A stretch of DNA of 64,000 nt from SAR324 cluster bacterium. Its GTDB lineage: Bacteria; SAR324; NAC60-12. The notes below the pieces were generated by a model. It searched no databases, was not told the DNA's origin, and saw only the letters and a program-made list of their open reading frames with translations. The stretch is taken from positions 3,156 through 67,155 of the forward strand of contig JAKUUI010000003.1 in the NCBI GenBank assembly GCA_022448485.1, written 5' to 3'. Position numbers and translations under genes: made by a program. Below are positions 20,960 through 64,000 of this stretch, piece by piece (position 1 is the first letter of the stretch; each line of letters opens with the position of its first letter).

Positions 20960-20981
20960 AACTAATAATAACGGAGATGCG

Positions 20982-29061: not shown

Positions 29062-30024
29062 ATGTCATTAAAAATCAATCATAATATTGAGTCCATGGTT
29101 GCACATCGCAACCTGTTAATGAACGACCGTGCGCTTTCAAAGTCACTTGAAAGACTGGCTTCGGGACAGAAAGTCAACCGGGCAGCCGATGATCCGGCAG
29201 CTTTGGTGATTTCTGAACATATGCGTGCCCAGGTTAGCGGGATGCAACAGGCAATCAAGAATAACGAAATTGCCATTTCACTCGTTCAAACTGCTGAAGG
29301 CTCTATGAATGAAATCTCGAATATGCTGGTTGGCCTTCGTCAGCGAGCAATTTCTGCAGCAAACGTTGGTGCTAGTGACCAGTCAATGATTGAAGCCAAT
29401 CAGGCTGAAATTGAAAATGCGCTTGCATCAATTGATCGTCTTGTGACTACTACACAGTTCGGACATTACAAACTTCTGGACGGAACAAATGCTTCGCGAA
29501 CCGAGATCAAATTTAGGACTGATTCGGATGGAGAATTTGTGTTAGACGGCGACGATAACAAGATTATAGAGTCAAAATCAACCGTAGAAGGACTCCGTTT
29601 TCATGTTGGACCTAATGCAGATCACCAGGCTTCAGTTTCTATTCGAAACATGCACACAAATCAGCTTGGTCGGGTTGCAGAGGGTCAAAACAAAAGCAGC
29701 TTTGCATCGCTTGCTGATATTGATGTGCGCAATGAGCAAGGTGCTCAGGATGCACTTGCTATAATTGATCAGGCGCTTACAGAGGTTGCTACAGTTCGCG
29801 GAGAAGTAGGTGCTTTCCAGAGTCAAACACTGGAAACCAATCTCACCAGCTTGCAGATTGCATCAGAAAATATGACTGCTGCTGAATCCACTCTTCGTGA
29901 CACTGATATGGCTCAGGAACTGGCGACATTTACTCGTAACCAGATCATGAGTCAATCAGCAACTGCGCAGTTGGCTCAGGCCAATGCACTGCCGCAAAAC
30001 GTATTGCGGTTATTAAACAGCTAG
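29062..30024 (+). CDS. Flagellin (320 aa, short central region)
   Basis: N-terminus MSLKINHNIESMVAHRNLLMNDRALSKSLERLASGQKVNRAADDPAALVISE and C-terminus DTDMAQELATFTRNQIMSQSATAQLAQANALPQNVLRLLNS. A strong SD (AAGGAG) is 6 nt upstream, and the stop codon is TAG. Confidence 0.93.
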   Translation: MSLKINHNIESMVAHRNLLMNDRALSKSLERLASGQKVNRAADDPAALVISEHMRAQVSGMQQAIKNNEIAISLVQTAEGSMNEISNMLVGLRQRAISAANVGASDQSMIEANQAEIENALASIDRLVTTTQFGHYKLLDGTNASRTEIKFRTDSDGEFVLDGDDNKIIESKSTVEGLRFHVGPNADHQASVSIRNMHTNQLGRVAEGQNKSSFASLADIDVRNEQGAQDALAIIDQALTEVATVRGEVGAFQSQTLETNLTSLQIASENMTAAESTLRDTDMAQELATFTRNQIMSQSATAQLAQANALPQNVLRLLNS

Positions 30025-30060
30025 CAGGATTTTGGGATTAACCCCCCAAACCTTGCACTA

Positions 30061-30100
30061 TTCCGGCTCCATATATTTGGAGTCCGGAATTGCTGTTTTT
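30061..30100 (+). terminator. Rho-independent terminator after flagellin 2
   Basis: TTCCGGCTCCA-TATATT-TGGAGTCCGGAA followed by TTGCTGTTTTT. Confidence 0.7.
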
Positions 30101-30126
30101 ACCAGTTTTCAAAGGCCGGTTATCAT

Positions 30127-30154
30127 TAATCATGAATCACAGATTTGTCGATAA
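30127..30154 (+). promoter_or_regulatory. Sigma-28-like promoter upstream of flagellin 3
   Basis: TAAT-N16-GTCGATAA. The -10 element matches 7 of 8 positions, the -35 is TAAT rather than TAAA, and the spacer is one nt longer than consensus. Confidence 0.4.
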
Positions 30155-30216
30155 CTGGAGTTCAAACACCGGAGAACGGAAACGAAAAACCGGAAACCTT
30201 AATTAAATGAGGAACT

Positions 30217-34500: not shown

Positions 34501-37500
34501 TCAGCGCCCTGTGTTACGAAAGTGATACAGGGTTCCTTCCTCACTCCCGATTATCAGATCCAAGTCCCCATCACTGTCCAAATCAACAAATACCGGATTC
34601 CCACCAACAGGCAATTTTAATTTTTTAAAATATTCTGGAGAAGATTTCCAGGTAAGCAAAGTTGTATTTTCTGGATCAGGCTGAAAACTGAATAATTTCC
34701 CTGAATCAGATCCTACAATCAGGTCTGGCTGATTATTATTATCGAGGTCAGTAATTTTTGGTACAGAACCAAGTCCGACGTCTAAATTTAAATATTTACG
34801 CCTTTCAAGCCGGAAACTAAATCCACTACCGTTTTCTATACTCATAAATTTATGCAATTGACCGATGAAATTTCCTACCAGCAAATCATTACGGCCATCA
34901 CCATTCAGGTCAAGAACAGCTGGAACTGAGTTCCTTCCTCCAGTCACGCCAATAAACGGGGTTGGATTATAGATGAATTCAGCTATTTCAGAACTTCCTT
35001 TATTTTCCCAGTAGTGAATATTTCCATGTTGATTGCCGACCAGCAGATCAAAATCACCATCTCCATCCAAATCAGCAAAAACTGGTGCTGAATTTTTTCC
35101 ACCACGATAATCTAGAAAGTGTTTGCTTTCCAGAATCCATTGTGACTCACTGGAACCTTGTTTTTGCCGGTAATATCTAAGTTCACCAGCATTATTCCCG
35201 ACAATTAAATCAATAATGCTGTCACCGTCTACATCCATAAATGCAGGAAAAGCTCGACGGCCAAGTTCCAAGTTCCCATACCTGTCACTGATAAACTCGA
35301 ATATAGGCTCAATTGGCTCGTCTGCCTCTAGATCTTCTTCAGCAGCAGGTGTTTCAACGGGAATTATAGTGGCATCTGCCTGTACATCTTCATCTTCATC
35401 ATCCTCCAAAGTATTTTCTGTTAGAATAAGAGTACTTTCCTGCTGAGTCTCCACAATTTTTTTTAGACCACCGTTTTTCATGTAGTGCAAATTACCCTGT
35501 TCATCACCCATCAGCAAATCTGTTTTGTTATCTCCGTCAATATCTGCAAAATGCGGTGTGCTGTAGCCGATGGTTTTTATTTTTTGCCACTGAGCAGCCT
35601 CCAGGGTCCATCCACGCAGCACCGGTGACCTTTCTGGGGGCTTATGACTGACCAGACTTAAAAAACCTTCACGGCCGCCAATTACAAGATCTGGATACTC
35701 GTCTTCATTCCATTTCCAAAAAGTTGGTGCAGAGCTGGCTTTCATTTTAATCCCGGAAATACGTGTGTTGCGCAGGACAAAATGCGGTGAGTTTTTGTTT
35801 CCTTGATTCTCATAGTAAATAATCAAACCTTTACTGTTTCCAACAAGCAGATCTAGGTCTTCGTCCCCATCCATATCTTGCAGTAATGGGGTGCTGAAAC
35901 TGCCTACATCAATTTGTGATAAATTCATGTCATGTACAACCCAATCTGGCTCCTTTTCAGTACCGCGGTTGAGTATCCATTCTATTTTTCCGCGCCGATT
36001 TCCGCAGATGATGTCTAAATCTCCATCACCGTCAATATCTGTTAAAACAGGGGAACTGTACTGTCTTCTATCCGTTTCAAGTGCTGGAAATTTTAGCGGA
36101 TACCAGTCTGTCCCTTGATCAGCACGGTTTTCAAAAGCATATATTTCACCAGAGCGGCTGCCGAGAAGAATATCTAGCCGACCATCCTGGTTCCAGTCTC
36201 CGCTCGTCAGGAAGGAGTGGCGGTCATTGCCCACGAGGTTCTCTATCTTGAAAAAGTTTCTGCTGGATAACCAGAGTTGGTTCCGTGTTATAATTCCCAG
36301 AGATTTCAGATTTTCAATTTTTTCATTTTTTTCTGCTGCGTCTGGTTCAATCTCACGCCAAAGATGGAAGAATTCGCCGCCACTGACTGCAGCCTGATTT
36401 GTCAGATCCCCTGTCTTTTCTAGGCCTGCTACATTTCCCTCCTCGGGTTCTTCATCAGTTGCTGTGTTTTCCTGCGTGGAAGTATCTGCCTCATTTGTAT
36501 CATCAGTAACTTCAGCAGAATCAACGATTTCTTCGGAAAAGACATCGATACTTATATCTGGAAGTAAAATATAGGGGTACAACTGCAGCAATTTATTAAT
36601 CTTTGTTCCTTCCGGGACTCCGAATGCAACGCTTAGTGGAATGATACATTCAGGCAACCCCTTTAATTGAAGACATGCTTGTGTGAGGACTTTTTCAAAA
36701 GCAGCTGTTCTGTCAATCTTATGCAACTGAATGGAAGGTATTTTGCGCAGTAGATCAAGAAGAACTTCGTGGTTTTCATAATATATCACTTTTGAAGAAG
36801 AGGTACCCAAAAATAGTTCCGGAAAACTGTCTCGATTCAAATCGTGAAATGTGGGCGCAACGTTGCCTCCGGTGTCAATAAATTGGAAATGTCGGGATTT
36901 TAAGCTCCAGTGCGGTGCAAAGTTGTCTCCGGTATTGAGATAATAATTGATTTTTCCGTTAGATTTTCCAATAACCAGGTCCAGGTCTTTATCTTGATCC
37001 CAATCCACAAATTCAGGAACAGCATCAGCTTGAGGCGAAATGTCAGCAATCACTTCAGGTTGATATTTACAGCGGATATCTGGTGGGTCTGTAACCTCAA
37101 AATGCTGACAAAAAACTGCTTCATCGGTCATTCCGGAATTAAAAAATACGTGAGTTTTTCCGGATCGTGTGCCGACGAATAAATCATATGTGCGGTCACC
37201 GTTTATATCAGCAAAACGTGGAACGCTGTTGCCTCCAAATTTCAATTCCATATAAATTGGAGTTTTACGGAAAAACATGGGGTGAAGCTGGTTACCCCGA
37301 TTTTCGTAGTGAAAAATATGGCCATCCTCAGAGCCAACAAACAAGTCGAAGTCTCCATCAGAGTCGATGTCAACAAACTCTGGAGCAGCATTGTTTCCAA
37401 CATCAAGTACGGTTCGGACGTGTGTGGCATTACTTTGTTCGTCTATGCCTTCATGAATTACCACGAAATTTTCCGTCATCAATTTGAAGAATGGATCTGC

Positions 37501-37797
37501 AATACTGCCTTGATTGAGGAAAAAAGCGATGCGTCCATCTGCCTTGCCCACGTACAGGTCATCGTCACCATCATGATCAATATCAACAAAACGCAGCTGA
37601 CAGCGCGCAAAACTGTTAGTGTAGAGCAGCTTTGTCTCTCCTTTTAGATTTCCGTAAAACTGAGGAATCCATGTGTAAGTTAAAGCAAGCGGATCATCTC
37701 CGGCTACGGCAGTACCGGAAGTTCCCTGACAAAATAACAGTATCAGGTAAAGAATTGAACTGAGCTGGATATTAAATGTATTTGGAGCCTTGAACAT
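34501..37797 (-). CDS. Secreted FG-GAP/VCBS-repeat protein (1098 aa)
   Basis: It has an N-terminal signal-like segment. FG-GAP-type Ca-binding motifs recur many times (DIDHDGDDDLYVG, DIDSDGDFDLFVG, DIDGDGDLDIICG, DLDGDGDFDLLVGN, DLDSDGDLDLIIG). Two acidic linker regions are present. Confidence 0.85.
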   Translation of the reverse strand: MFKAPNTFNIQLSSILYLILLFCQGTSGTAVAGDDPLALTYTWIPQFYGNLKGETKLLYTNSFARCQLRFVDIDHDGDDDLYVGKADGRIAFFLNQGSIADPFFKLMTENFVVIHEGIDEQSNATHVRTVLDVGNNAAPEFVDIDSDGDFDLFVGSEDGHIFHYENRGNQLHPMFFRKTPIYMELKFGGNSVPRFADINGDRTYDLFVGTRSGKTHVFFNSGMTDEAVFCQHFEVTDPPDIRCKYQPEVIADISPQADAVPEFVDWDQDKDLDLVIGKSNGKINYYLNTGDNFAPHWSLKSRHFQFIDTGGNVAPTFHDLNRDSFPELFLGTSSSKVIYYENHEVLLDLLRKIPSIQLHKIDRTAAFEKVLTQACLQLKGLPECIIPLSVAFGVPEGTKINKLLQLYPYILLPDISIDVFSEEIVDSAEVTDDTNEADTSTQENTATDEEPEEGNVAGLEKTGDLTNQAAVSGGEFFHLWREIEPDAAEKNEKIENLKSLGIITRNQLWLSSRNFFKIENLVGNDRHSFLTSGDWNQDGRLDILLGSRSGEIYAFENRADQGTDWYPLKFPALETDRRQYSSPVLTDIDGDGDLDIICGNRRGKIEWILNRGTEKEPDWVVHDMNLSQIDVGSFSTPLLQDMDGDEDLDLLVGNSKGLIIYYENQGNKNSPHFVLRNTRISGIKMKASSAPTFWKWNEDEYPDLVIGGREGFLSLVSHKPPERSPVLRGWTLEAAQWQKIKTIGYSTPHFADIDGDNKTDLLMGDEQGNLHYMKNGGLKKIVETQQESTLILTENTLEDDEDEDVQADATIIPVETPAAEEDLEADEPIEPIFEFISDRYGNLELGRRAFPAFMDVDGDSIIDLIVGNNAGELRYYRQKQGSSESQWILESKHFLDYRGGKNSAPVFADLDGDGDFDLLVGNQHGNIHYWENKGSSEIAEFIYNPTPFIGVTGGRNSVPAVLDLNGDGRNDLLVGNFIGQLHKFMSIENGSGFSFRLERRKYLNLDVGLGSVPKITDLDNNNQPDLIVGSDSGKLFSFQPDPENTTLLTWKSSPEYFKKLKLPVGGNPVFVDLDSDGDLDLIIGSEEGTLYHFRNTGR

Positions 37798-47430: not shown

Positions 47431-50400
47431 TCACATATTTCGACGATACTTCCCGCCCAGCCGATAAAGTTTTTGAGTTATTTGACCCAACGAGCAAACT
47501 TGTACTGCTTCCATCAGAACCTCAAAAAGATTGCCGTTTTTTAAAGCTGTCTCGCTGAGGCGTTCCATAATGCTGTCCTGCTCAGATGCGTTGAATTGGT
47601 GAAATTGCTCTAGATCACGAATTTGCATAGATTTTTCTTCATTGGTGGAACGTGCTAATTCGATTTCAGCACCTGCATCAGGTGGATTGGGGTTGAGAAA
47701 AGTATTTACACCCATGATCGGCAATTCTCCGGAATGTTTAAGTCTTTCGTAATAAAGCGACTCCTCCTGGATTTTGTTGCGCTGGTACATGGTTTCCATG
47801 GCCCCCAAAACTCCGCCACGGTCAGAAATTCGTACAAATTCAGACAAAATCGCTTCCTCTACCAAATCAGTTAATTCCTCAATCAGAAAACTGCCCTGCA
47901 GCGGGTTATGGTTGTAGGCTTGTCCTAACTCGTGATTGATAATCAGTTGAATTGCCAAAGCGCGGCGTACTGATTCACCCGTAGGTGTAGTTATAGCTTC
48001 GTCGTAAGCGTTGGTGTGGAGAGAATTGCAATTGTCGTAAATGGCATACAATGCTTGCAATGTCGTCCGGATGTCGTTGAAATCCATCTCCATGGCGTGC
48101 AGGGAACGCCCGGAAGTCTGGATGTGATATTTTAGTTTTTGTGAACGTTCATTGGCTCCATATAGATCACGAAGGGTCACCGCGAAAATACGTCGTGCTA
48201 CCCGTCCAATCACCGCATATTCCGGATCCATTCCGTTGCTGAAAAAGAAGCTCAGGTTGCGCGCAAAATCATCAATCTGTAAACCCCGGGCTAAGTAATA
48301 TTCAATCAGTGTGAAGCCGTTGGCAAGAGTGAAGGCGACCTGGCTGATTGGATTGGCTCCGGCTTCGGCAATGTGGAATCCGGAAATGCTGACAGAATAA
48401 AAGTTACGAACATCGTTTGCAGTGAAGTATTCCTGCATGTCTCCCATCATCCGCAACGCAAAATTTGTGGTAAAAATACAAGTGTTTTGTGCTTGATCTT
48501 CCTTCAAAATATCTGCTTGCACCGTTCCACGCACGTTTTTCAAAACATCTGCCTTTATTGTGCCGTAAGTTTCCGCATCAACAAAATATTTGCCAGACAT
48601 TCCCAACAATCCCAGGCCCAAACCATCATGATTTTCAGGGAGTTCCATTCGATATTCCGGAGGTGCAAGTCCTTGTTTTTTATAACGTTTATGGAGTGTT
48701 TTTTGTGCGTCCTCAAAATTTCCCTTTTCGTGCAAATATTTTTCAATTTGCTGGTCGATGGCGGCATTCACGAAAAAAGCAAGCACTACCGGTGCAGGAC
48801 CGTTGATTGTCATTGAAACGGAGGTGTTGCTCAAAAGCAGATCAAATCCAGAGTAGAGCCTTTTTGCGTCATCCACAGTGCAGATAGAAACACCGGCATT
48901 ACCGATTTTCCCGTAAATATCCGGACGCGAATGTGGGTTTGAACCGTAGAGCGTCACCGAGTCAAAAGCAGTACTCAGGCGAGTAGCAAGTTGACCTTGG
49001 GCCAGCAAATGAAAACGCCGGTTTGTACGCTCAGCGATTCCTTCACCTGCAAACATGCGGGTCGGATCTTCACCTTCACGTTTAAACGGAAAAACGCCGG
49101 CAGTAAAGGGGAAATTACCTGGAAAATTTTCCAAGCCTAACCAGCGAATTATTTCACCCCAATCTTCAAATTTCGGTGTGGCGATTTTCGGAATTTTGAG
49201 TCCGGAAAGACTGGTTAGATAATTCTCCACATCCAGCGCTATGTCACGTACATGAAAACTGAATTTTTCGTCCAAATAACTTTGCCGCTTTTCCTTGAAT
49301 TCCTCCAATTGTTTAAGTAGCGATTCCGGAAGTGTCGCTAATTTCTCATTGTAAAGTTCTGCCACAGAACGTAAATTCTCTGGAACTTCTGCCAAGTGTA
49401 ACTTGGCAATCTCGGTGGTTATCCCTTCCATTTGTAAAATTGTTCCGTGAAGCTGTCCGCATTCAGAGGCAGTTTTAGTATTTTTAAGAACATTTTTTTT
49501 GTATGTGCGTACATTCGACGCAATTTGCCGCAGATATTCTTTGCGATCAGAAGGAATCAACTCTGTCATTTTGGAAACAGCAAACTCAGCTTTGTGTTTG
49601 CGTTTCCAGTTGAGTGATTTTTTATTGATGAGCATTCCAATTGTTTTGTGATAAAGCCAATTTGTACCGCTATCATTGAAACGGCTGGCTACCACGCCAA
49701 AAACGGGGATGCTTTCTGGTGTTGTTTCAAATTCTAGATGACTGCGCTGGTATTGTTTGCGCACGGCAAGTAAAGCATCTTCGGCTCCGGGTTTGTCGAA
49801 TTTGTTGATCACAATACAATCAGCAAAGTCAATCATATCAATCTTTTCCAACTGCGTTGCCGCCCCGAATTCAGGAGTCATCACATAAACGCTCAAATCA
49901 ACAAAGTCAGAAATTTCCGAATCACTCTGTCCGATGCCTGCAGTTTCCACAAATGTTATATCGTAAGCACAAGCGCGCAGTAAACGCACTGCACTGTCTA
50001 ATGCAGCTGAAGTCGCTAAATGTGAACGGCGCGTGGCCAACGAACGCATAAAAACTCTTGGATCATTGATCGAATTCATACGCATCCGGTCACCGAGCAA
50101 TGCGCCTCCAGTTTTGCGTTTGGATGGATCAACGGACAAAATCGCTACACGCTTTTCCGGAAATTCCGTAAGGAAACTTCGTACGAATTCATCCATCAAA
50201 CAAGACTTCCCCGCGCCGCCTGTTCCGGTGAATCCGATCACCGGAAGTTGCGAATTCTCCGCTGGAACGCCCTGATCGGAAAGTTTTGCCAAAACATTTT
50301 GAACTGCTTCCGGACGTTCCACAGGCAGCGGACCTTCCTTATTTTGCTCAATCCAAGTCAAACTTCGGGCAACATGCTGAACATTTTCCGGGACCAATTT

Positions 50401-50880
50401 GTCCGCTTGCGGTTCAAAATTTTCAGGCAATACTGAAAAATCAGCACGTTCAAGCATATCCGCAATCATGCCCTCCAAACCAAGTTCGCGTCCGTCTTCC
50501 GGAGAGTAGACTCGGTTTACACCGTATTCCATTAATTCCTGCATCTCAGATGGAATAATTACACCGCCTCCGCCAGCAAAGACCTGAATATGTCCGGAAC
50601 CTCTTTCATTTAACAAGTCCATCATGTAGCAGAAAAATTCCATGTGTCCGCCTTGGTAGGAACTGACTGCGATACCCTGTACGTCCTCTTGAATGGCGAT
50701 GTCCACGATTTCCTTCACGCCGCGATCATGACCAAGATGAATAACTTCTGCACCTTGTGCCTGCATGATACGGCGCATGATGTTGATGGCGGCATCATGC
50801 CCGTCAAACAAACTAGTGGCGGTTACGAACCGGACGTGATTCTGGAGAGTGGTGGATTTTTTTGGCTGAGTTGAGTTCAT
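47431..50880 (-). CDS. icmF: Fused isobutyryl-CoA mutase (IcmF: B12-binding domain + MeaB-like GTPase + mutase catalytic domain)
   Basis: 1149 aa. The N-terminal B12 domain carries [12 protein letters not shown] (DxHxxG), the middle has P-loop GTGGAGKS, and the C-terminal ~550 aa form a methylmalonyl-CoA-mutase-like barrel. Confidence 0.85.
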
Positions 50881-50938
50881 GTCAGCTACTTTGTCTATAA
50901 AATTCTTTTAAAATGTTTTGCAGATAGTCGTTCATTAA

Positions 50939-52030
50939 TTAGGTTAAATTTTGTATTTCAGTCTTTGAAAGCCCAAGTACTTCAGCCCCGTCCAAAATCT
51001 GCTTCCACGTGGCATCATCAATCGGAATGCCTTTTGTTTGTCGTGTTTTTATGAATTGACGTTCCGGGTCTCCGGCAACCAGAACAGGTTCTTCCGGATT
51101 GGCGGGAGGAGAGGCTTTGCTGTGTGAGACAATCGCTTCAACTTCGTGCTGCATCCATGGTATATCTACCAATTTCGCAGGATCAATGATCAAAGTGAAC
51201 ATGTTGTTGATGATGCTGTTTTGGCGCGGATGTTCAGGCAGAATTGTTCCGCCTCCGCTGAGCAGACCGCCGAACAATTCACAAAACAAGGCCAGACTGT
51301 AGCCTTTGTAATCTCCGAAAGGAGTCAGTGCACCAAGGGGTGGATTGTCCGAACGATCCGGGAAAAGGTATCCTGCCATCACTCCTGGGTCTGTGCTGGG
51401 TTGTCCTTGATAGTTGATGACCAGACCTTCTTTAAGAGCTTCTCCTTTATTTAGAGCGACCCGAGTTTTTCCAAGTGCGATGCAGCTTGTTGCCATGTCG
51501 AGTAAGACCGGAGGCTGCTTTTGGCTTCCGGGCATGGCGAGGCAAATCGGATTGGTAGAAAAACGTGCATCCGAACCACGAAAAGGTGCTACCAGCGGCG
51601 GATGATCAGTGACATTTACAAAATGCAGCGAGACCATTCCGGCGGCAATACTCTGTTCACCATAAGTGCCGATGCGTCCCAGATGATGTGTATTCCGGAG
51701 CGTCATCAAAACCAATCCGGATTCATGGCATTTTTCAATAGCTTTTTCCATCGCCATTTTACCCACTGCTTGTCCGTAACCGCGCAGGCCGTCAAACATC
51801 AGAATTGAGCCGTCTGCTTTGACCAGTTCTGGTTTTTGGTTGGGATGCAGCAAATCCGCTTGCAGCATTCTCATGTAAAACGGCAGCATGCCCACTCCGT
51901 GGCTGTCGTGTCCTGCCAAGTTGGAGCGTACCAAGTGATCAGCAACAATCTGCGCTTCTTCAGAATCGCTGCCACCTTTTTTGAGGATGGCAGCAACAAA
52001 AATTTTCAGTTTAATTTCCTTGATCAGCAT
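50939..52030 (-). CDS. Ldh_2-family (malate/L-lactate/ureidoglycolate dehydrogenase-type) oxidoreductase
   Basis: 363 aa with AGHDSHGVGMLPFY, NTHHLGRIG and STNPICLAMP, typical of family-2 Ldh/Mdh enzymes. Confidence 0.8.
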   Translation of the reverse strand: MLIKEIKLKIFVAAILKKGGSDSEEAQIVADHLVRSNLAGHDSHGVGMLPFYMRMLQADLLHPNQKPELVKADGSILMFDGLRGYGQAVGKMAMEKAIEKCHESGLVLMTLRNTHHLGRIGTYGEQSIAAGMVSLHFVNVTDHPPLVAPFRGSDARFSTNPICLAMPGSQKQPPVLLDMATSCIALGKTRVALNKGEALKEGLVINYQGQPSTDPGVMAGYLFPDRSDNPPLGALTPFGDYKGYSLALFCELFGGLLSGGGTILPEHPRQNSIINNMFTLIIDPAKLVDIPWMQHEVEAIVSHSKASPPANPEEPVLVAGDPERQFIKTRQTKGIPIDDATWKQILDGAEVLGLSKTEIQNLT

Positions 52031-52230
52031 CTTTCACCCATGATAAATGACGCATTAGTCAAGTTGAACAATCAATTTTGAGAACAGGCCCCAAATTTAT
52101 TTGGTGGATCCGGATTAGCACAGTTCGTAGAAACCGTTTTAAAGGTTTTTTGAAATGCTTGCATATAAAACCTGAAATCGATAAAGTGTTGTGGATTAGT
52201 TGATTTTTTTCATCTACATATTTCATCGAA

Positions 52231-53421
52231 TCAACAAAACGCCTGTATACCTGTCTGCGCACGTCCTAGAATCAACGCATGTACATCGTGGGTACCTTCA
52301 TAAGTATTAACGGTTTCTAGATTCATCATATGACGAATGACGTGGAATTCATCGGAGATACCGTTAGCGCCGTGCATATCACGAGCGAGGCGGGAAATGT
52401 CCAGGGCTTTTCCGCAATTGTTGCGCTTCATCAAAGATATCAGTTCCGGTGCACACTTGCCGTCATCCATCAAACGCCCCATTTGCAAAACTCCCTGCAG
52501 ACCAAGAGTTATTTCAGTTTGCATGTCTGCAAGTTTTTTTTGTATTAACTGATTTGCGGCTAATGGTCGTCCAAACTGGATCCGGTCCAGCGTGTATTGA
52601 CGAGCCTGCATCCAGCAATATTCTGCAGCGCCTAATGTTCCCCAGGCAATCCCGAAACGAGCGCGATTTAGACAGCCGAAAGGTCCCTTCAGTCCGGATA
52701 CGTTGGGCAATTCATTTTCTGCTGGAACAAAGACATTGTCCATTACAATTTCACCGGTAATGGATGTTCTCAGTGATATTTTACCCACAATCTTAGGTGC
52801 ACTAAGCCCTTCCATGCCTTTTTCCAGGATGAAACCACGAATTACACCTTCGTCGTTTTTTGCCCAAACCACGAAGACATCAGCAATCGGTGAGTTTGTG
52901 ATCCACATTTTGTTGCCTGTCAGTCGAAATCCTCCATCTGCTTTTCTTGCGTGTGCCTCCATGCTTCCAGGGTCTGAGCCGTGATTTGGCTCAGTCAATC
53001 CAAAACAACCCACCAACTCAGCACTTGCCAGTTTTGGTAAATATTTTTTGCGTTGTTCCTCGCTGCCGTAGGCATAAATTGGATACATCACCAAACTTGA
53101 CTGTACGCTCATTGCAGAGCGGTATCCGGAATCAACCCTTTCTACTTCACGGGCGATCAAGCCATAAGAAACATAGTTTGCTCCAACTCCGCCGTATTCT
53201 TCAGGAATGGTTGAACCTAAAAATCCGAATTCACCAAATTCATTCATGATTTCACGGTCAAAAACCTCGTTACGGTTGGCGTCCAAAACCCTCGGCATTA
53301 ATTTGTCCTGACTGAAATCACGGGCTGTGTCACGTATCAGGCGTTCCTCTTGAGTAAGTTGGTTATTAAGCAGCATTGGATCAGACCAATCGAAGGCTGC
53401 TCCGTGGTTGGTTTGTTTCAT
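52231..53421 (-). CDS. gcdH: Acyl-CoA dehydrogenase, glutaryl-CoA dehydrogenase-like
   Basis: 396 aa. The N-terminus [27 protein letters not shown] and the overall pattern are typical of Gcd[12 protein letters not shown] and YEGTHDVH are present. Confidence 0.8.
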
Positions 53422-53611: not shown

Positions 53612-55477
53612 ATGCAACAACGTAGAAAAAACACTTCTGGTTCTCACGGACCGGCATTGGATTTAGATTTTAAGGAACGCTTGGGTGCGCTCAGGAATCT
53701 TCCTGAATTTTTCAGTCTTATTTGGAGTTGCAATAATTGGCTGGCAGCCTTGAATATTTTGCTACGTGTCATCCGGGCCTCTTTGCCGCTCGCTATGCTT
53801 TATGTTGGCAAACTCATCATCGATGAAATTGTCCGGATTTCAGTAATTGCTAGCGGACCTGCCGTTGAAAATCCGGATATGTCGATTGTAACCATATATG
53901 TTTTGATCGAACTTGGTCTGGCTGTTTTCTCAGATTTGCTGGGACGTGGCATAGCATTGTTGGACAGTTTGCTCGGAGATTTGGTCTCGCATGAAATTTC
54001 TTTGCGTTTGATGCATCAATCGGCACGACTCGATTTGGAATGTTTTGAAGACTCTGATTTTTATGACAAACTTGAACGTGCACGACGTCAAGCATCAAGC
54101 CGGATTTTACTGATGTCTCAGGTTTTGGCACAACTGCAGGACAGTATCACCGTATTTTTTTTGGCAGCAGCATTGATCACATTTAACGCTTGGCTTTTGC
54201 TACTGCTGGCCATAACGCTTATTCCCGCATTTTTGGGTGAAACGCATTTTAACAGTCAAAGCTATTCGTTGATGTACGGCTGGACACAGGAACGCCGGGA
54301 ACTTGATTATTTACGTTTTGCAGGGGCCAGTGACGAAACAGCTAAAGAAGTAAAAATTTTTGGTTTGTCTGATTTCTTTGGCAGTCGCTACAAAAAGTTG
54401 GCAGGAGAATATTACCGTGCTAACAGGGATCTTTCGGCGCGTAGGGCTGCATGGGGCGGATTGCTTTCAATGGTTGGAAGTTTGGGTTATTACACAGCCT
54501 ATGCAGTGATCATTTATAGAACAGTATACGGAGAATTGTCTCTTGGTGATCTGACATTTCTTTCAGGCTCTTTTTTGCGTTTGCGCTCATTGATGGAAGC
54601 CATTCTGATTCGCTTTTCAAGCATTGCCGACAGTGCTCTTTATCTGAGGGACTTGTTTGATTTTCTTGAAATGGAACCACGGATAATCTCAATCGATAAT
54701 TCGTTGCCCTTTCCGGTTACTATTCGTAAAGGATTTACTTTTGAGAATGTGGGTTTCCGTTACCCGCAAATGAAACAGTGGGTTTTGCGGGATGTTTCTT
54801 TCACATTGCATCCCGGAGAAAAACTGGCTCTGGTAGGTGAAAATGGAGCAGGTAAAACCACACTTGTCAAACTGCTGACACGGCTCTACGATCCTGTCGA
54901 GGGGCGTATTATGCTGGATGGACACGATTTACGGAAATATAACCTGGATGGATTACGGGATGCGGTTGGGGTAATATTTCAAGATTATGTTAAGTATCAT
55001 TTAACGGCCACAGAAAACATTGCTGTCGGGCTGATAGATGAAAGAAACAATGAAACTCGTATTAAAGAAGCCGCCCGGCAGAGTTTGGCTGATAAAGTGA
55101 TTGAAAATCTTCCAAACGGATATCAGCAAATGATTGGACGCTGGTTCAAACAAGGTACTAATTTATCGGGAGGAGAATGGCAAAAAATAGCTATTGCTCG
55201 TGCCTACATGCGTGACGCACAACTGCTTATTTTGGATGAGCCTACTGCATCTTTGGACGCAAGGGCTGAAAACGAAGTTTTCCGGCGTTTTGTAGAATTG
55301 ACGTTTGACAAGTGTGCTGTCCTGATTTCTCATCGTTTCTCTACGGTACGCATGGCCGACCGGATTGTTGTTTTGCATGAAGGTAAGTTGTTAGAACATG
55401 GAACGCATGACGAACTATTGGCTGTAGGAGGGCGATACAGCGAATTATTTCAAATGCAGGCCGCTGGATATTGTTGA
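53612..55477 (+). CDS. ABC exporter, fused permease/ATPase (type-1 exporter fold)
   Basis: 621 aa. A six-TM N-terminal half is followed by Walker A GENGAGKTT, the signature LSGGEWQK and Walker B LLILDEPT. Confidence 0.85.
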   Translation: MQQRRKNTSGSHGPALDLDFKERLGALRNLPEFFSLIWSCNNWLAALNILLRVIRASLPLAMLYVGKLIIDEIVRISVIASGPAVENPDMSIVTIYVLIELGLAVFSDLLGRGIALLDSLLGDLVSHEISLRLMHQSARLDLECFEDSDFYDKLERARRQASSRILLMSQVLAQLQDSITVFFLAAALITFNAWLLLLLAITLIPAFLGETHFNSQSYSLMYGWTQERRELDYLRFAGASDETAKEVKIFGLSDFFGSRYKKLAGEYYRANRDLSARRAAWGGLLSMVGSLGYYTAYAVIIYRTVYGELSLGDLTFLSGSFLRLRSLMEAILIRFSSIADSALYLRDLFDFLEMEPRIISIDNSLPFPVTIRKGFTFENVGFRYPQMKQWVLRDVSFTLHPGEKLALVGENGAGKTTLVKLLTRLYDPVEGRIMLDGHDLRKYNLDGLRDAVGVIFQDYVKYHLTATENIAVGLIDERNNETRIKEAARQSLADKVIENLPNGYQQMIGRWFKQGTNLSGGEWQKIAIARAYMRDAQLLILDEPTASLDARAENEVFRRFVELTFDKCAVLISHRFSTVRMADRIVVLHEGKLLEHGTHDELLAVGGRYSELFQMQAAGYC

Positions 55478-56929: not shown

Positions 56930-58153
56930 CTTTTATATGTCGCAAATCCATTTGCTGTTTTTCTTACGCACAAATTCTCTTAATTTATTGGTTGAGATTC
57001 GCGAAGAATTTTTCCTGTCCATGGAAAGGCTTCAGTAGCAGACTCACTCATACATTGTAATGTAATTCGAAGTGTAAAATCAACAAAAAAGAACACCAAT
57101 AATATGTATAAGTTCATAAATATATGATAATAAATATAAATAATTATAATAAATAAAAGTTTTATTGTATTTATGCAAAATTAATTAACAACAAAGTTGT
57201 TTAACATTAAGCAACTAAGGGATACAAAAAAATGATATTAATTTTTTATTTTAGATATCGGAAAAAATTTTTGTAGAAAGCAAAATATGAAAAAGTCTTT
57301 AAATCAACTTGCTTACACAAAAGAAGAAAGTCTGAGATATTTGACATAATTCTGAATACTGTGTTTTTCAACAATAGATGAGGGTAGATGGTCTTTAAGT
57401 TGTGACGATCTTTTTGTGCTCTATGAAAGCAGTCATATTTATATCAGCGCATTAGTTGTTCAAAATAGTAACCTTATCAATGGTAAATGGGCTTTAATCA
57501 CGTACATTGAACTTGAAGAGCGGTCTAATGCCAAATTAAGGATATTTCATCAAAAGTATTAGAAAAATTTATCAAATTTCTGGTGTACGGGCATATGAGT
57601 TGTCGAATATGTCTGCGTAATTTTCAATGTTAAATTTTCAAAAAACAACTACAGGTAGAACCTGATGAATGCATTGATTATGGAGTATTTTCGGGATTTT
57701 TTTGACAGATATGATTCCTAAATAATTCTTTTTTTCAAGACGATGGCGTCGTGAAAATAGCCTCAATTATTTCTATTTTGTGGCTAATAAAATGGAGAGA
57801 AAAATTATTAAAAAAATAAGCAAAAACATAGAATGACTCAATGAAGTCGGAATCATCAGAAATTAAATGGGGGTTTTGCCTTTTTCGAACTCTCAAGCTT
57901 ATTAATTTACCTCTCACCAGTTTGTAAAATTATAAAGTAAAAGTTTGAAAAACAAGGATTCACCTTGTAACAGTAGCAATGATCAGGTTAAATCGTAATA
58001 GTATATTTGGCTTAAAAAACCATTTTTCTTGATCCAACAAAACAATGGTCACTTCAAAGTCACGACCGTTTCAGCTTTTTTCGTATTTAAGGGATAAAAT
58101 TCGATGGAATCAAGTAGTTCTCAAAATCAAAACTTCAATCTGCAAAGGCTTTA

Positions 58154-59620: not shown

Positions 59621-60739
59621 ATGCACGAAAAATACTATGACGTAATCATTATCGGAGGTGGACCTGCTGGATTGTTTGCTGGTATCGTTTGTGCCAGAAA
59701 TAATCTAAAGACATTGATCTTGGAAAAGCAGGCATATCCCATTGACAAAGCTTGTGGAGAAGGAATTATGCCTACCGGAGTTGAGCATCTCCGGGAGTTG
59801 GGAATTGCTCCTTTTGTCGAAAAATATCCGTACCATTATTTCAAGGGAATCCGTTATATTTCCGGAAAAGGTAGAACGGCAGAAGCTAATTTTGCAGAAG
59901 GTTCAGGATGGGGAATCCAGCGTGTTGTATTTTCTTCAGCATTGCTTGAATGTGCCGCTACTTTGTCGAACCTGGAAATTCGAGCAGGAGCATCTGCTGT
60001 TTATACTTTGGGGGAAAATCCGAAAGTTAACTTAAATAATACAGTTTTGTGTCCAAAGCTCTTGATTGGCGCAGATGGTTTGCACTCGCAGGTTCGAAAA
60101 CTGGCAAATCTGGAAGCATTGTTTCCCAAACTTAAACGCTGGGGGGTACGGCAGCATTTCAATGTTGAGCCCTGGAGCGTGTTTGTTGAAATTTACTGGG
60201 GTCCCGGACTTGAAGCCTATGTGACGCCGGTTTCTGTTTCCAGTGTGAATGTGAGTTTATTGTGGGACGCAAAGCGCTACAAACCAGAGCATGGAGGCAA
60301 AAAACTGTTTGCCTCACTGCTTAAGGAATTTCCGGAATTGCAGGAACGCATAAATAAAGAGGATGTTATGGACGAGTCGATGGCAGCAGGTCCGCTGTAT
60401 CAGAAAACATGGAGTGTCGCGAATGGAAAAATTTTGTTGATTGGCGATGCTGCCGGCTTTTTTGACCCTATTACTGGAGAGGGTATCAGTCTTGCGGCAA
60501 AGCAGGCTCTTTTGTTGGAAAAAATTGTAATACCCATTTTGCAGAAAAAAAATGAAAATCTTGAAAAGAGACTTGCCGAATACTCGCGGGAATTCACACA
60601 AATATACCGTCCGTATCATGCCATGACCAGACTGGTGCTTTTATTTCGATTGTGGCCGAAGTTGACAGATCGTGTGATTCAGGTTTTGCACTCTTTTCCT
60701 GCATTATTTCAAAAACTGCTGTCTGTCAACATGCGCTAA
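59621..60739 (+). CDS. FAD-dependent oxidoreductase (geranylgeranyl-reductase / flavin monooxygenase-like)
   Basis: 372 aa with YDVIIIGGGPAGLFAG, DKACGEGIMP and LIGDAAGFFDPITGEGIS. Confidence 0.8.
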   Translation: MHEKYYDVIIIGGGPAGLFAGIVCARNNLKTLILEKQAYPIDKACGEGIMPTGVEHLRELGIAPFVEKYPYHYFKGIRYISGKGRTAEANFAEGSGWGIQRVVFSSALLECAATLSNLEIRAGASAVYTLGENPKVNLNNTVLCPKLLIGADGLHSQVRKLANLEALFPKLKRWGVRQHFNVEPWSVFVEIYWGPGLEAYVTPVSVSSVNVSLLWDAKRYKPEHGGKKLFASLLKEFPELQERINKEDVMDESMAAGPLYQKTWSVANGKILLIGDAAGFFDPITGEGISLAAKQALLLEKIVIPILQKKNENLEKRLAEYSREFTQIYRPYHAMTRLVLLFRLWPKLTDRVIQVLHSFPALFQKLLSVNMR

Positions 60740-60830
60740 ATTAGAAGAGCTGGTTTGCGAAGCGTAACACGGCATCTGCGTATGATTTTAAACTATTGTA
60801 GGTCTTTAAGCTGGAATTCGAACTGTTAAT

Positions 60831-62078
60831 TTGGAAACAAAACAACGAGTAGTAGTAACTGGGCGAGGAGTGATTTCACCAATCGGCAGTTCGATATCTG
60901 ATTATTGGGAAAGCCTCCGCATGGGGGTATCTGGTGTACGTAAAATTATAGAATTTGACCCGACCGGATCTGCCTGCCAAATTGCAGGAATTGTTACAGA
61001 TTTTGATTCTGACGCTCATTTTAATCTTCGAGAAAAAAAAAGCTATGAGCGTTTCACTCAGTTTGGTCTGGCTGCGGCATTTCAAGCTGCTGAAGAAGCA
61101 GAGCTTCAGGAGTTGGAAGATGATTCCGGAGAAATTGGCGTTATAATGGGAACGGGAGTGGGTGGAATAACCTCTTATGCAAAAGCGTACGATGCACTTT
61201 TTGCTGGACCGGAAGAACGGCCAATTGACGCTTATACCATTCCTCGCATAATGAACAGTGCGGTTTCTTCTGCCATTGCAATAAGTTTGGGATTGCGAGG
61301 ACCGAATTTTACACTGAATACAGCTTGTTCTTCCGGTGGCAATGCAGTCGGTCAGGCAATGCAGTGGATTCGAGAAGGGCGAACACGTGCTGTTATCTGC
61401 GGTGGTACAGAGGCTCCCGTCACTTACGGGCTTCTTCGCGCTTGGGATGCATTAGGTGTACTCTCACGCAAACATAACGGAACTCCAGAAACTGCCTGTA
61501 GACCTTTTGATAAAAATCGTAGCGGCTTTGTACTGGCAGAAGGAGCGGCAGTATTAGTGCTTGAATCATTGGAATCTGCCCAAAAACGGAATGTTCCGGT
61601 ACTAGGTGAAATCGCAGGCTTTGGTTCGAACTGTGATGCCACCAGTTTGACAAATCCGGACGAAAATGGGGTGGCAGACGCAATTAGGTTAGCTCTGGAT
61701 GATGCTGAACTAAATCCCGAAGACATTGGATACATCAATGCTCACGGAACAGGAACCCGTCTTAATGATCCGCTTGAATGTAGGGCTATACACCAAATAT
61801 TTGGTGGTAGAGCAGCAACGTTGCCAGTCAGTTCTAACAAATCCGTTTTTGGTCATTCGATGGGTGCATCTTCCGCGCTGGAGGCTCTCGCTACCCTGCT
61901 GGCAGTACAGAATGATTGTGCTCCGCCAACTCTCAATTGCGACTACCAGGATCCTGAGTGTGCTATTGATACTGTATCCCACAATTCGAGGAAAGTAACC
62001 ATAGATGCTGCACTTTCCAATTCCTTCGCCTTTGGGGGAAGTAATGCTGTCCTTGCTTTTAGAAAATGGAAACCATAA
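60831..62078 (+). CDS. Beta-ketoacyl-ACP synthase (KAS I/II type)
   Basis: 415 aa with a TTG start. The Cys-His-His triad contexts are NTACSSGG, INAHGTGT and FGHSMGAS. Confidence 0.88.
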   Translation: METKQRVVVTGRGVISPIGSSISDYWESLRMGVSGVRKIIEFDPTGSACQIAGIVTDFDSDAHFNLREKKSYERFTQFGLAAAFQAAEEAELQELEDDSGEIGVIMGTGVGGITSYAKAYDALFAGPEERPIDAYTIPRIMNSAVSSAIAISLGLRGPNFTLNTACSSGGNAVGQAMQWIREGRTRAVICGGTEAPVTYGLLRAWDALGVLSRKHNGTPETACRPFDKNRSGFVLAEGAAVLVLESLESAQKRNVPVLGEIAGFGSNCDATSLTNPDENGVADAIRLALDDAELNPEDIGYINAHGTGTRLNDPLECRAIHQIFGGRAATLPVSSNKSVFGHSMGASSALEALATLLAVQNDCAPPTLNCDYQDPECAIDTVSHNSRKVTIDAALSNSFAFGGSNAVLAFRKWKP

Positions 62079-62320
62079 CACGCAATACAATTGAACAAAC
62101 TTGTCTTGAAGCCATTGCAAAGGAAATGGGCTTGAAATCAAGTGATCTCAATGCAGAAATGAATTTGCGCGATGATTTGGATATAGTCTCACTTGATGCC
62201 ATGAACATCATCATGGCACTAGAAGATGAATTCAAAATTGAGGCTGATATAGAAACAATCTTAGAAATGCAGAAAGTGTCTGATATTGTAGATCATTTGT
62301 CTGAACGCATTAATGTTTGA
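62066..62320 (+). CDS. Acyl carrier protein
   Basis: 84 aa. LRDDLDIVSLDAMNIIMALEDEF is an ACP-like helix II with the phosphopantetheinyl Ser in (D/V)SLD. It overlaps the ketosynthase gene by 13 nt. Confidence 0.75.
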   Translation: METITRNTIEQTCLEAIAKEMGLKSSDLNAEMNLRDDLDIVSLDAMNIIMALEDEFKIEADIETILEMQKVSDIVDHLSERINV

Positions 62321-62395
62321 AAAAGACTTTCTTCTGCTGAAAAAATCCTGATATTTCATTTTTATCAATATCCATGATATAGACCATTCCAGCCG

Positions 62396-63553
62396 ATGCC
62401 CCAAATAATCAGTACTGCCACAGCTTTCCCGGTGCACTATCACTCACAGGATGAAATGAGTTCTGCGTTAAGGGCGGCATGGATCAAAAAAGGTTTAGAT
62501 GTTGCGGTCTTTGACCGTCTGCAAAAAGCAGTAACAGTTGAAGGCAGATATCTGGCTTTGCCCATGTCTGAATATTACAAGCTGGACGGTTTTACTGACT
62601 GTAACCGTGCATGGCTGAAAGTGGCTTTAGAACTAGGCGAGAGCGTTATTTCGGATTTACTGGAAAAAACGAGATTGCCTGCGGAAGAAATTAAGCTACT
62701 GATGAGCACAACAGTCACTGGAGTGGCAGTGCCTTCTTTGGAAGCGCGATTGATGAACCGGATAGATTTTGCATCGGATTTAAAGAGGATTCCTTTGTTT
62801 GGTTTGGGGTGTCTCGCTGGAACTGCAGGTATCGCCCGTGTTGCTGATTATTTGAAAGGTTATCCTGATGAAGCAGCCATTTTGCTTTCTGTAGAGCTTT
62901 GTTCATTAACTCTGCAGGCGGAAGACCTTTCGGTTGCAAACATCATTTCCAGTGGGCTCTTCGGTGATGGTGCAGCAGCTGTTTTACTGGTTGGTGATAA
63001 ACATGCGCTAGCAAATGAAGTTGAGGTACAAAGAGTAAAAAACACTGAGTTTCAACATTTCAATGGTTCAAGTGAGAAAAGCCAAAAGCAGGCTGAACTT
63101 TCTCATCCACAGGTTTTAAGCAGTCGCTCCATTTTCTTTCCTGATTCAGAAGAAGTCATGGGATGGGATGTCACAGACCGTGGATTGAAAATTGTCTTGG
63201 GGCAGGGTGTTCCCGGTTATGCATCACAGTTGCGTCCGCATGTGGAAAGTTTCCTCTCAGAGTTTGGACTTGCCTTGACTGATGTAGCTGTTTGGCTGAC
63301 ACATCCTGGAGGACCGAAAGTGATTGATGCGATTGAGTCCGGCTTGGACTTGCCTACAAAAACACTGGATAGAACACGTAAACATCTTCGTGAAATAGGT
63401 AATCTTTCTTCAACTTCAGTCTTAGTTCTACTTGACGAATGTTTGAATGGTCCATTACCGGAAATAGCAGGAAAGTCTTGTGTGTGCAGATATGGAATGA
63501 TGCTGTCAATGGGTCCGGCATTTTCCGCTGAATTAGTATTGCTGAAATGGTGA
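62396..63553 (+). CDS. Type III polyketide synthase (chalcone/stilbene synthase superfamily; BpsA/SrsA-like)
   Basis: 385 aa. PSLEARLMN, active-site Cys in RIPLFGLGCLAGTAG, LCSLTLQ, FGDGAAAVLL, His in WLTHPGGPKVID, and Asn in REIGNLSSTSVL. Confidence 0.88.
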   Translation: MPQIISTATAFPVHYHSQDEMSSALRAAWIKKGLDVAVFDRLQKAVTVEGRYLALPMSEYYKLDGFTDCNRAWLKVALELGESVISDLLEKTRLPAEEIKLLMSTTVTGVAVPSLEARLMNRIDFASDLKRIPLFGLGCLAGTAGIARVADYLKGYPDEAAILLSVELCSLTLQAEDLSVANIISSGLFGDGAAAVLLVGDKHALANEVEVQRVKNTEFQHFNGSSEKSQKQAELSHPQVLSSRSIFFPDSEEVMGWDVTDRGLKIVLGQGVPGYASQLRPHVESFLSEFGLALTDVAVWLTHPGGPKVIDAIESGLDLPTKTLDRTRKHLREIGNLSSTSVLVLLDECLNGPLPEIAGKSCVCRYGMMLSMGPAFSAELVLLKW

Positions 63554-64000
63554 GCCTTTGGGGATTTTCGGTATTGGTAGGTTTGCTTGCCGTACAGCGA
63601 TTGTGGGAATTGAACCTGAGCCAACGTAACGAAATCCTGATGCGAAAACAAGGCGGATTTGAGTGCTTCCCTGATCATTATCGTGTAATGGTGGTGCTAC
63701 ACATTTCCTGGTTTGCGGCAATGCTGGCCGAAGCCTGGTACTTTAAAACATCACCGACTCTGTGGTTAGTGATAGTTGGTATTTCAGGGTTAGTATTCGG
63801 ACAAGCCTTACGCTATTTAGCTATCAGAACACTTGCTGGGCGTTGGTCAACTCGAATATACGTTGTTGCGGATGTGCCGTTGATTAAACACGGTATTTAC
63901 CGTTTCATGCGCCATCCGAATTATTGGGGTGTGATTTTAGAAATAGCTTGTGTGCCCTTAATTCACGCAGCCTATGGTACAGCTCTAGTTTGGTCACTGG
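63547..64000 (+). CDS. ICMT-family (isoprenylcysteine carboxyl methyltransferase-like) membrane methyltransferase, partial at the window end
   Basis: My translation from ATG 63547 reads MVSLWGFSVLVGLLAVQRLWELNLSQRNE...IKHGIYRFMRHPNYWGVILEIACVPL. The RHPNY motif is typical of ICMT/PEMT-like enzymes. It overlaps the PKS stop by 7 nt and is open to nt 64000. Confidence 0.75.
   Translation, partial: MVSLWGFSVLVGLLAVQRLWELNLSQRNEILMRKQGGFECFPDHYRVMVVLHISWFAAMLAEAWYFKTSPTLWLVIVGISGLVFGQALRYLAIRTLAGRWSTRIYVVADVPLIKHGIYRFMRHPNYWGVILEIACVPLIHAAYGTALVWSL

Follow-up and report, generated by a model that had tools for sequence, protein, structure and literature searches.

A candidate phenolic-lipid operon of SAR324 bacteria that joins a ketosynthase and an acyl carrier protein to a type III polyketide synthase

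The five-gene block and its encoded proteins

The window analysed here is a 64,000-nt stretch of DNA from a SAR324 cluster bacterium (assembly GCA_022448485.1, contig JAKUUI010000003.1). At its 3′ end, between positions 59621 and 64000, the six-frame listing of open reading frames (ORFs) contains five co-directional genes on the + strand, which encode a FAD-dependent oxidoreductase (hereafter the flavoprotein), a stand-alone FabF-like β-ketoacyl synthase (KS), an acyl carrier protein (ACP), a type III polyketide synthase (PKS) and an integral-membrane methyltransferase of the ICMT family (Table 1). The genes are separated by 91, −13, 75 and −7 nt. A first-pass annotation, made by a model from the letters of the stretch, had described these five tightly packed genes, with a 13-nt overlap of KS and ACP and a 7-nt overlap of PKS and ICMT; the ORFs and the Pfam and NCBIfam domains agree with the assignment, and both overlaps are found in the ORF coordinates. 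We read the block, at a probability of about 0.6, as a vertically inherited chromosomal operon of SAR324 that would make a membrane phenolic lipid. Judged by sequence, the set of PKS, methyltransferase and flavoenzyme is known, and what is new is the KS and ACP joined to it in a conserved five-gene operon. Full-text searches on SAR324 type III PKSs and alkylresorcinols and on KS-ACP-linked type III PKSs yielded no description of such a cassette in the papers covered.

Table 1. Coordinates of the block genes, their key codons and the insertions in the PKS (positions of the window)
Feature	Position	Strand	Size or residue	Match or basis
FAD-dependent oxidoreductase	59621..60739	+	372 aa	Pfam FAD_binding_3 1.3e-18
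Stand-alone FabF-like β-ketoacyl synthase (KS)	60831..62078	+	415 aa, TTG start	ketoacyl-synt N 2e-47, C 8e-34
KS catalytic codon	61326-61328	+	Cys166	
KS catalytic codon	61743-61745	+	His305	
KS catalytic codon	61854-61856	+	His342	
Acyl carrier protein (ACP)	62066..62320	+	84 aa	PP-binding 6.5e-10
ACP phosphopantetheine-attachment codon	62189-62191	+	Ser42	aligned with AcpP Ser36
Type III PKS	62396..63553	+	385 aa	Chal_sti_synt_C, FAE1_CUT1_RppA, Chal_sti_synt_N
PKS catalytic codon	62810-62812	+	Cys139	
PKS insertion	63008..63103	+	residues ~205-236	loop after FGDGAAAVLLVGD strand
PKS codon	63164-63166	+	Trp257	
PKS catalytic codon	63302-63304	+	His303	
PKS codon	63317-63319	+	Lys308	
PKS catalytic codon	63401-63403	+	Asn336	
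Second PKS insertion	63461-63481	+	6 aa, residues ~356-362	alignment
ICMT-family integral-membrane methyltransferase	63547..64000	+	151 of ~171 codons in the window	ICMT 2.9e-19, PEMT 8e-6

The catalytic residues of the KS (Cys166, His305 and His342), together with Lys337 and the GFGG-loop residue Phe401, are invariant in 15 aligned KSs. The best PDB match of the protein is Synechocystis FabF (1e5m, 6e-105), and it scores higher against FabF (355 bits) than against the actinorhodin KS (252 bits). It passes the NCBIfam subfamily model NF005589, 'beta-ketoacyl-ACP synthase II' (449 bits, cutoff 387), and fails the fabF equivalog TIGR03150 (455.3, cutoff 493.75). Several of its homologues are labelled 'nodulation protein E' by JGI. 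No second KS or ACP is present within the 64-kb window; with a single KS gene and no second KS-like ORF (KS-β or chain-length factor), the block does not match the minimal system of a type II PKS. The ACP is 29% identical to Escherichia coli AcpP and lies below the cutoff for all eleven NCBIfam ACP models (for instance 37.7 against 70.45 for TIGR00517). Its gene begins 13 nt before the KS gene ends, an overlap that recurs in L020, L021, L026 and L109 (homologous loci and contigs are given L numbers throughout).

The PKS belongs to the group of bacterial long-chain alkylresorcinol and alkylpyrone synthases. Its PDB matches include Mycobacterium tuberculosis Pks11 (4jao, 9e-80) and, as the third-best, CylI (8ysp, 8.6e-69); an exact look-up of the window PKS gave no hit, and a scan of GTDB representatives returned relatives at ≤48% identity only. 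Cys139, His303, Asn336 and also Trp257 are invariant in 74 sequences, and the triad aligns with that of Pks11, whose cysteine is marked by its C138S crystal mutant. The Cys-His-His set of the KS and the Cys-His-Asn triad of the PKS, first called intact from their sequence contexts, are thus confirmed on proper alignment. One position is reported to hold Arg or Lys in type III PKSs that load from an ACP, and Ala in those that load from CoA (PMC9827899); Lys308, by its motif HPGGPK, would occupy it. Trp281 of ArsB favours resorcinol formation (PMC6274091, PMC9927152); Trp257 would take the same position, as placed by a nine-residue spacing to F265 of chalcone synthase and M293 of ArsC.

The extra segment of about 30 residues that had been pointed out in the PKS is real, with a length of 27–32 residues relative to Pks11, CylI and relatives of 349–354 residues, and is accompanied by the shorter insertion near the C-terminus. 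Both are limited to the SAR324 clade at ≥70% identity, and the sequence of the longer one is poorly conserved. In the AlphaFold2 model of the PKS, which has a predicted template-modelling score of 0.89, residues 210–234 and 358–362 are the only segments with a predicted local distance difference test (pLDDT) value below 50. Between the window and L002, the non-synonymous difference (pN) is 0.45 in the insertion and 0.11 elsewhere in the PKS gene, a four-fold excess. With such low pLDDT and high pN, a functional novelty of the segment seems unlikely. Its most plausible reading is a tolerated, fast-evolving surface loop with no sign of a catalytic role; a docking role is possible.

The flavoprotein is a class-A enzyme of the branch that resembles geranylgeranyl reductases and halogenases and carries the motifs GGGPAG, GADG and GDAAGFFDP. 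Its top NCBIfam match is the geranylgeranyl-reductase superfamily model TIGR02032, at 111 bits below the cutoff of 158.8. A flavin-dependent halogenase was considered and rejected: the WxWxIP motif is absent, with LEAYVTP aligned to WIWVIP of 3nix, and the halogenase matches in the PDB are confined to the shared FAD fold. The ICMT gene, which starts within the end of the PKS gene, runs off the window. Its full-length homologue in L001 has 171 residues, shares 97% identity with the 151 residues encoded in the window and matches Tribolium ICMT (5vg9, 3e-6).

Conservation and inheritance of the cassette

The surroundings of PKS homologues were tabulated from a metagenome scan and tblastn searches at 108 loci, with the counts for the KS limited to loci with enough flanking sequence. 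Of the 13 loci with a PKS at ≥53% identity to that of the window, 10 have a KS directly 5′ of the PKS; of the 47 with a PKS at ≤52%, 0 have one. The ICMT gene lies directly 3′ of the PKS in 15 of 18 close loci and keeps this place in 59 of 69 distant ones, where a FAD gene follows next (20/48). The proteins of these distant PKS-ICMT-FAD loci are full-length homologues of those in the window (PKS 40–52%, ICMT 33–49% and flavoprotein 28–48% identity, the last for the gene 3′ of ICMT in L010–L019, L033, L040 and others). Their hosts are Actinomycetota, including metagenome-assembled genomes (MAGs) of Mycolicibacter and Mycobacterium, and Myxococcales, besides many metagenome contigs.

Outside the SAR324 synteny, the order KS-ACP-PKS-ICMT recurs in four unrelated neighbourhoods. 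Identities to the window (KS, ACP, PKS and ICMT, respectively) are 74, 68, 71 and 70% in L006, which has a FAD gene 5′ and a zinc-dependent alcohol dehydrogenase gene 3′; 59, 48, 58 and 50% in L021/22, with no extra genes noted; 58, 44, 56 and 51% in L024/25, with LUD and DAO genes 3′; and 53, 49, 53 and 56% in L020 ('Deltaproteobacteria bacterium TL4'), with a second methyltransferase gene 3′. The four genes thus diverge in parallel, their identities falling together. The cassette genes are under purifying selection: the ratios of non-synonymous to synonymous substitution rates (dN/dS) between the window and L002 are 0.089 for KS, 0.105 for ACP, 0.162 for PKS and 0.073 for ICMT, with 0.075 for the housekeeping gene lpd. 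In a neighbour-joining tree of 96 PKSs, which carries no bootstrap values, all KS-linked PKSs fall into one clade of 12. The hybrid architecture put forward in the first-pass annotation, a KS and an ACP between the flavoenzyme and the PKS, is therefore upheld, and the pair is confined to one PKS clade.

Nested within this clade is a marine lineage (L007–L009, positions 8001–9062; TARA and other samples) that has a solo PKS with no KS, ACP or ICMT, which indicates a secondary loss. A 95-aa acidic ORF 5′ of the solo PKS in L007 has no detectable family and was rejected as an ACP. A further locus (L077, positions 5998–10558) has the order type III PKS, FAD oxidoreductase, ACP, KS and a 192-aa unknown protein, with no ICMT. 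This arrangement is independent, so the combination of KS and ACP with a type III PKS arose more than once.

Pairs of KS and ACP also occur apart from a PKS. At positions 7001–9566 of L026, and with the same genes in L027, a KS-ACP pair (13-nt overlap, KS 49% identical to that of the window) has two GNAT (Acetyltransf_3) genes and a gene for a radical-SAM/SPASM protein behind it. Judging by these neighbours, the KS-ACP module of L026/L027 is reused in another lipid or peptide context. In L028, an ACP-KS pair adjoins a glycosyltransferase and an AMP-binding enzyme.

The flavoprotein gene is the variable member of the block. It lies 5′ of the KS in the window, L001, L056, L006 and L109–111 and is missing in L002, L003, L029 and L030; no FAD homologue was found within 7–8 kb of the non-SAR324 cassettes. 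L002 retains a remnant at positions 8366–8408, which encodes YEVLIVGGGPAGLFA (containing IVGGGPAGLFA) and is fused in frame directly ahead of the KS start. The remnant corresponds to FAD codons ~4–18 and shows 81% DNA identity to positions 59631–59673 of the window. As this in-frame remnant remains ahead of the KS, the L002 lineage has lost a stretch of ~1.1 kb by a clean deletion. On this comparison of sequences the FAD gene is an accessory tailoring gene, lost by deletion in one SAR324 lineage.

Within SAR324, the block occupies a fixed place on the core chromosome, with lpd on one side and an XPB helicase gene on the other. A syntenic SAR324 MAG contig (L109, GCA_014382365.1) has a gene order identical to that of the window: an IcmF-like mutase, Ldh_2, an acyl-CoA dehydrogenase, an ABC transporter, an SLT-like gene and lpd, followed by FAD, KS, ACP, PKS and ICMT and then by the XPB helicase and DUF790. 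NCBI names 'SAR324 cluster bacterium' in the 77%-identity cluster of the window PKS and in the 76%-identity cluster of the window KS. The rest of the window is likewise core chromosome (glutamate synthase, YidC, flagellar genes, MnmE, holB for the DNA polymerase III δ′ subunit and RecD2), and its GC content is flat at ~0.43. The cassette is found on hundreds of ocean metagenome contigs.

Proposed pathway and competing readings

The pathway is most likely one to a methylated alkylresorcinol or alkylquinone, primed by a dedicated acyl- or β-ketoacyl-ACP. The ACP would be phosphopantetheinylated and malonylated by enzymes encoded elsewhere. A fatty acyl chain would then be loaded on Cys166 of the KS and condensed with malonyl-ACP, and the ACP-bound chain would be passed to Cys139 of the PKS. 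The chain handed over could be either the 3-oxoacyl diketide or an elongated acyl chain, after reduction by the housekeeping FabG, FabZ and FabI. The PKS would add two or three malonyl-CoA units and cyclise the product, in all likelihood to a 5-alkylresorcinol through an aldol condensation. By analogy with characterised homologous systems, the ICMT-type membrane enzyme would O-methylate the ring and the flavoprotein would hydroxylate it to a methoxy-alkylhydroquinone or benzoquinone, as in srsABC and pkqABC; in lineages without the FAD gene the pathway would end with the methyl ether. Among related type III PKSs, ArsB/C, Gcs, CylI and HidC are established as taking their starters from an ACP (PMC6274091, PMC8086630). 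A narrower version of the proposal, which we regard as speculative and rather doubtful, has the KS and its private ACP as a priming module for unreduced 3-oxoacyl-ACP, with two extensions added by the PKS and a polyketide-quinone-like electron carrier or an abundant phenolic lipid as the product. Were the 3-oxoacyl priming and the quinone-like product true, a new lipid biomarker for marine samples would be gained and, for an uncultured phylum, an alternative quinone.

The block was compared with the ArsB/C, SrsA-C, PkqA-C, HidA-C and BpsA/B systems through homologous loci and published descriptions. The PKS-ICMT-FAD arrangement has been described as srsABC, pkqABC and hidABC (PMC9927152, PMC10896814, PMC8086630). 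The srsABC genes of Streptomyces griseus and the pkqABC genes of Mycobacterium smegmatis and Streptomyces sp. MNU77 share with the window a type III PKS, a membrane methyltransferase and a FAD oxidoreductase and are operons that lead from alkylresorcinols to alkylbenzoquinones ('polyketide quinones') (PMC9927152). The likeness to srsABC that had been noted is borne out by the full-length homology of the PKS, ICMT and flavoprotein to the genes of such loci. The FAD gene is last in srsABC and pkqABC, whereas in the window it lies 5′ and the KS with its private ACP is inserted directly 5′ of the PKS, an insertion seen in none of the 47 srs-type loci. The window further differs in the ~30-aa loop of the PKS and in its host, an uncultured marine SAR324 bacterium and not an actinomycete. 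The hidABC operon of Cyanobium (hierridin) and a planctomycete operon, both compared by description, are likewise three-gene phenolic-lipid types of aquatic bacteria; their order is methyltransferase, oxidoreductase and PKS, and they have no dedicated KS or ACP, the acyl-ACP being assumed to come from the fatty-acid synthase (FAS). HidC has been proposed to start from acyl-ACP (PMC8086630, PMC10896814).

The PKS followed by an ICMT-family methyltransferase is also the arrangement of bpsA-bpsB of Bacillus subtilis and dquA-dquB of Sporomusaceae (PMC9827899). The resemblance to bpsA-bpsB had been recognised at the outset, and the 7-nt overlap and the Pfam ICMT match agree with it. Unlike the window, bpsAB and dquAB are two-gene units without KS, ACP or flavoenzyme, for which alkylpyrones and methyl ethers are reported. 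The ars system of Azotobacter vinelandii (ArsA/ArsD with ArsB/ArsC) follows the same logic as we propose here, in that a dedicated condensing system and carrier feeds the PKS (PMC6274091). Its synthases are multidomain type I FASs with reductive domains, whereas the window has a discrete KS and ACP and no acyltransferase, ketoreductase, dehydratase or enoyl reductase; no multidomain FAS or PKS ORF was found in the 53.6–64 kb part of the window or in the 10-kb flanks of L109. A precedent for the hand-off is CylH to CylI in cylindrocyclophane biosynthesis, where CylI takes an ACP-bound chain from an upstream PKS, extends it and cyclises it to a resorcinol (PMC8086630). CylI is partnered by a modular type I PKS that a fatty acyl-AMP ligase and an ACP prime, whereas the partner in the window is a FabF-like stand-alone KS. 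Priming of the Myxococcus ftp type and of the cyl type has a fatty acyl-AMP ligase that loads the ACP (in part PMC8086630). No AMP-binding domain is present in the block or in the flanks of the window, L002, L006 and L109. In NodE/NodF-type pairs, a FabF-like KS and a private, divergent ACP divert fatty-acid intermediates to a specialised lipid with the aid of the housekeeping FAS, and this private use of a KS and an ACP resembles that in the window. The nod order is ACP then KS, with a Nod-factor acyltransferase as the partner, whereas in the window the KS precedes the ACP with a 13-nt overlap and a type III PKS takes the place of the acyltransferase.

The KS and ACP are probably a dedicated, co-inherited pair and not the housekeeping FabF and AcpP, because the ACP is so distant from AcpP and below all family cutoffs, the KS falls below the equivalog cutoff, fab neighbours are absent and the relatives of the KS have private ACPs; this was judged by family models, E. 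coli AcpP and gene context, and SAR324's own primary pair was not compared. Neither of the outcomes that the first-pass annotation had named as evidence against its proposal was seen: the KS and ACP, which fail the equivalog cutoffs and lack a fab context, do not resemble a primary FabF-AcpP pair, and the PKS triad is intact on alignment. If the pair were nevertheless the FabF and AcpP of the primary FAS, standing beside an ordinary bpsAB- or srs-type PKS-methyltransferase pair with no dedicated starter supply, one would expect a KS that is FabF-like throughout (in its PDB matches, NF005589 score, Cys-His-His residues and GFGG-loop Phe) and a location among housekeeping genes of the core chromosome, both of which are observed. 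We hold this to be highly improbable: besides the failed cutoffs of both proteins, no fabH, fabD, fabG or fabZ is found nearby in the window or L109, KS and ACP accompany the PKS in four unrelated neighbourhoods, with a divergence that keeps pace with that of the PKS, and the nearest non-cassette relatives of the KS (L026, L028) adjoin private ACPs in non-fab contexts. The pair could also be a self-contained module for its own acyl or β-ketoacyl product, such as an N-acyl compound or a glycolipid, with the PKS co-regulated and not fed by it. The overlapping KS-ACP genes without a PKS beside two GNATs and a radical-SAM gene (L026/27), and the ACP-KS genes beside a glycosyltransferase and an AMP-binding enzyme (L028), show that such a pair can serve other acceptors. 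No gene of the cassette encodes another acyl acceptor such as a GNAT, a glycosyltransferase or a lipid A-type acyltransferase, the pair stays immediately 5′ of the PKS on the same strand down to 53% KS identity while the flanks change, and the independent PKS-FAD-ACP-KS arrangement of L077 exists, which together make a module that bypasses the PKS quite improbable.

The same architecture might instead yield an alkylpyrone or its methyl ether, of the type made by bpsAB and the Negativicutes dquAB, with a flavoenzyme that acts otherwise than as a ring hydroxylase, for example as a side-chain reductase. Pairs of PKS and ICMT in Bacillus and Sporomusaceae are reported to give pyrones and pyrone methyl ethers (PMC9827899), several cassette lineages do without the FAD gene, the geranylgeranyl-reductase superfamily is the top NCBIfam match of the flavoprotein, and the role of the planctomycete FAD oxidoreductase was left unresolved by experiment (PMC10896814). 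We consider this outcome unlikely, if still a serious contender, in view of the invariant Trp257 at the putative position of the resorcinol determinant Trp281 of ArsB (PMC6274091) and of the homology of the flavoprotein and ICMT to PKS-ICMT-FAD operons, whose characterised members make methylated alkylresorcinol-derived quinones (PMC9927152). The enzymes of the planctomycete and cyanobacterial three-gene operons also made alkylresorcinols (PMC10896814), a likeness by gene type and not by sequence.

Several observations weigh against our reading of the block as an operon for a phenolic lipid primed by its own KS and ACP. The block contains no gene for a malonyl transferase, phosphopantetheinyl transferase, reductase, thioesterase or acyl-activating enzyme. 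In sequence the KS looks like an ordinary FabF-type enzyme, one that passes NF005589. Lys308 and Trp257 are consistent with the model and do not discriminate, since relatives without KS and ACP share both, and the solo PKS lineage (L007–9) suggests that the PKS can evidently persist without the pair. The best family match of the flavoprotein being the geranylgeranyl-reductase superfamily, it may have a reductase role. In L001, a contig 98.4% identical to the window, GAA is changed to TAA at positions 1647–1649 (window 61563–61565, KS codon 245), and this in-frame stop splits the KS into calls of 244 and 169 aa with the remaining four genes intact. Either the stop arose through an error in sequencing or assembly, or L001 represents a natural KS-null variant; the stop upsets the alignment, so that a dN/dS value for the KS against L001 is invalid.

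Operons of a type III PKS, a methyltransferase and a flavoenzyme make phenolic lipids; those of mycobacteria and Streptomyces also yield alternative respiratory quinones. To our knowledge, starters delivered by an ACP are known only from multidomain synthases or from the general FAS. If our reading of the block is true, a discrete KS and a private ACP form a minimal, portable means of feeding type III PKSs with a defined chain, which would be attractive for enzymology and engineering. SAR324 is abundant and uncultured and among the commonest bacterial lineages of the deep ocean. As the cassette is fixed in its core chromosome and present on so many ocean contigs, the product could be a quantitatively relevant deep-sea lipid or quinone, informative on the physiology of SAR324.

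Chromosomal setting of the block

The first-pass annotation had the cluster continuing beyond the window, and this is not supported. The ICMT gene has 169–171 codons in L001 (98.4% DNA identity) and L109, so that of the window would end ~62 nt past its edge, and the next genes are non-biosynthetic, which places the end of the block at ICMT. A gene for an XPB-type helicase and then DUF790 lie directly 3′ of the ICMT gene in L001 (4312–6985), L002 (11901–14511) and L109 (13256–15866), which we take to be the archaeal-type XPB-Bax1 pairing, here in a bacterium. On the 5′ side, lpd was considered as a member of the cluster and rejected, because it is syntenic within SAR324 only and absent from other cassette loci. 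Membership of an MsbA-like ABC transporter (53612–55477) is unsupported, since a divergent SLT-like gene intervenes and the transporter is absent from non-SAR324 cassettes. Terminator-like sites between the block genes are not above chance; the promoter and terminator scans performed at chance level and do not show where the operon starts or stops.

The divergent SLT-like gene and lpd are separated by an ORF-free, AT-rich stretch of 1.2 kb (56930–58153, GC ~0.33). It is ~0.9 kb longer than its counterpart in L002 and has a single 22-nt imperfect palindrome and otherwise no repeats; neither this gap nor any other part of the window has an Rfam match. Further upstream, on the − strand (47431–53421), lie genes for a fused B12-binding/MeaB/mutase protein (IcmF-like, 1149 aa), an Ldh_2-family dehydrogenase and an acyl-CoA dehydrogenase. 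They are syntenic with the PKS block in every SAR324 contig examined, and a link to the supply of a branched starter is conceivable.

Elsewhere in the window, positions 15802–21449 and 29062–31683 encode flagellar proteins: flagellin has three paralogues (589, 320 and 488 aa), and the cap protein FliD, at 1082 aa, is unusually long and is accompanied by FliS. To judge from the large flagellin and FliD, the filament may be an elaborated one. The − strand at 34501–37797 encodes an FG-GAP repeat protein of 1098 aa; its β-propeller repeats also match the propeller models of eukaryotic BBS2/BBS7, which is probably a generic repeat similarity.

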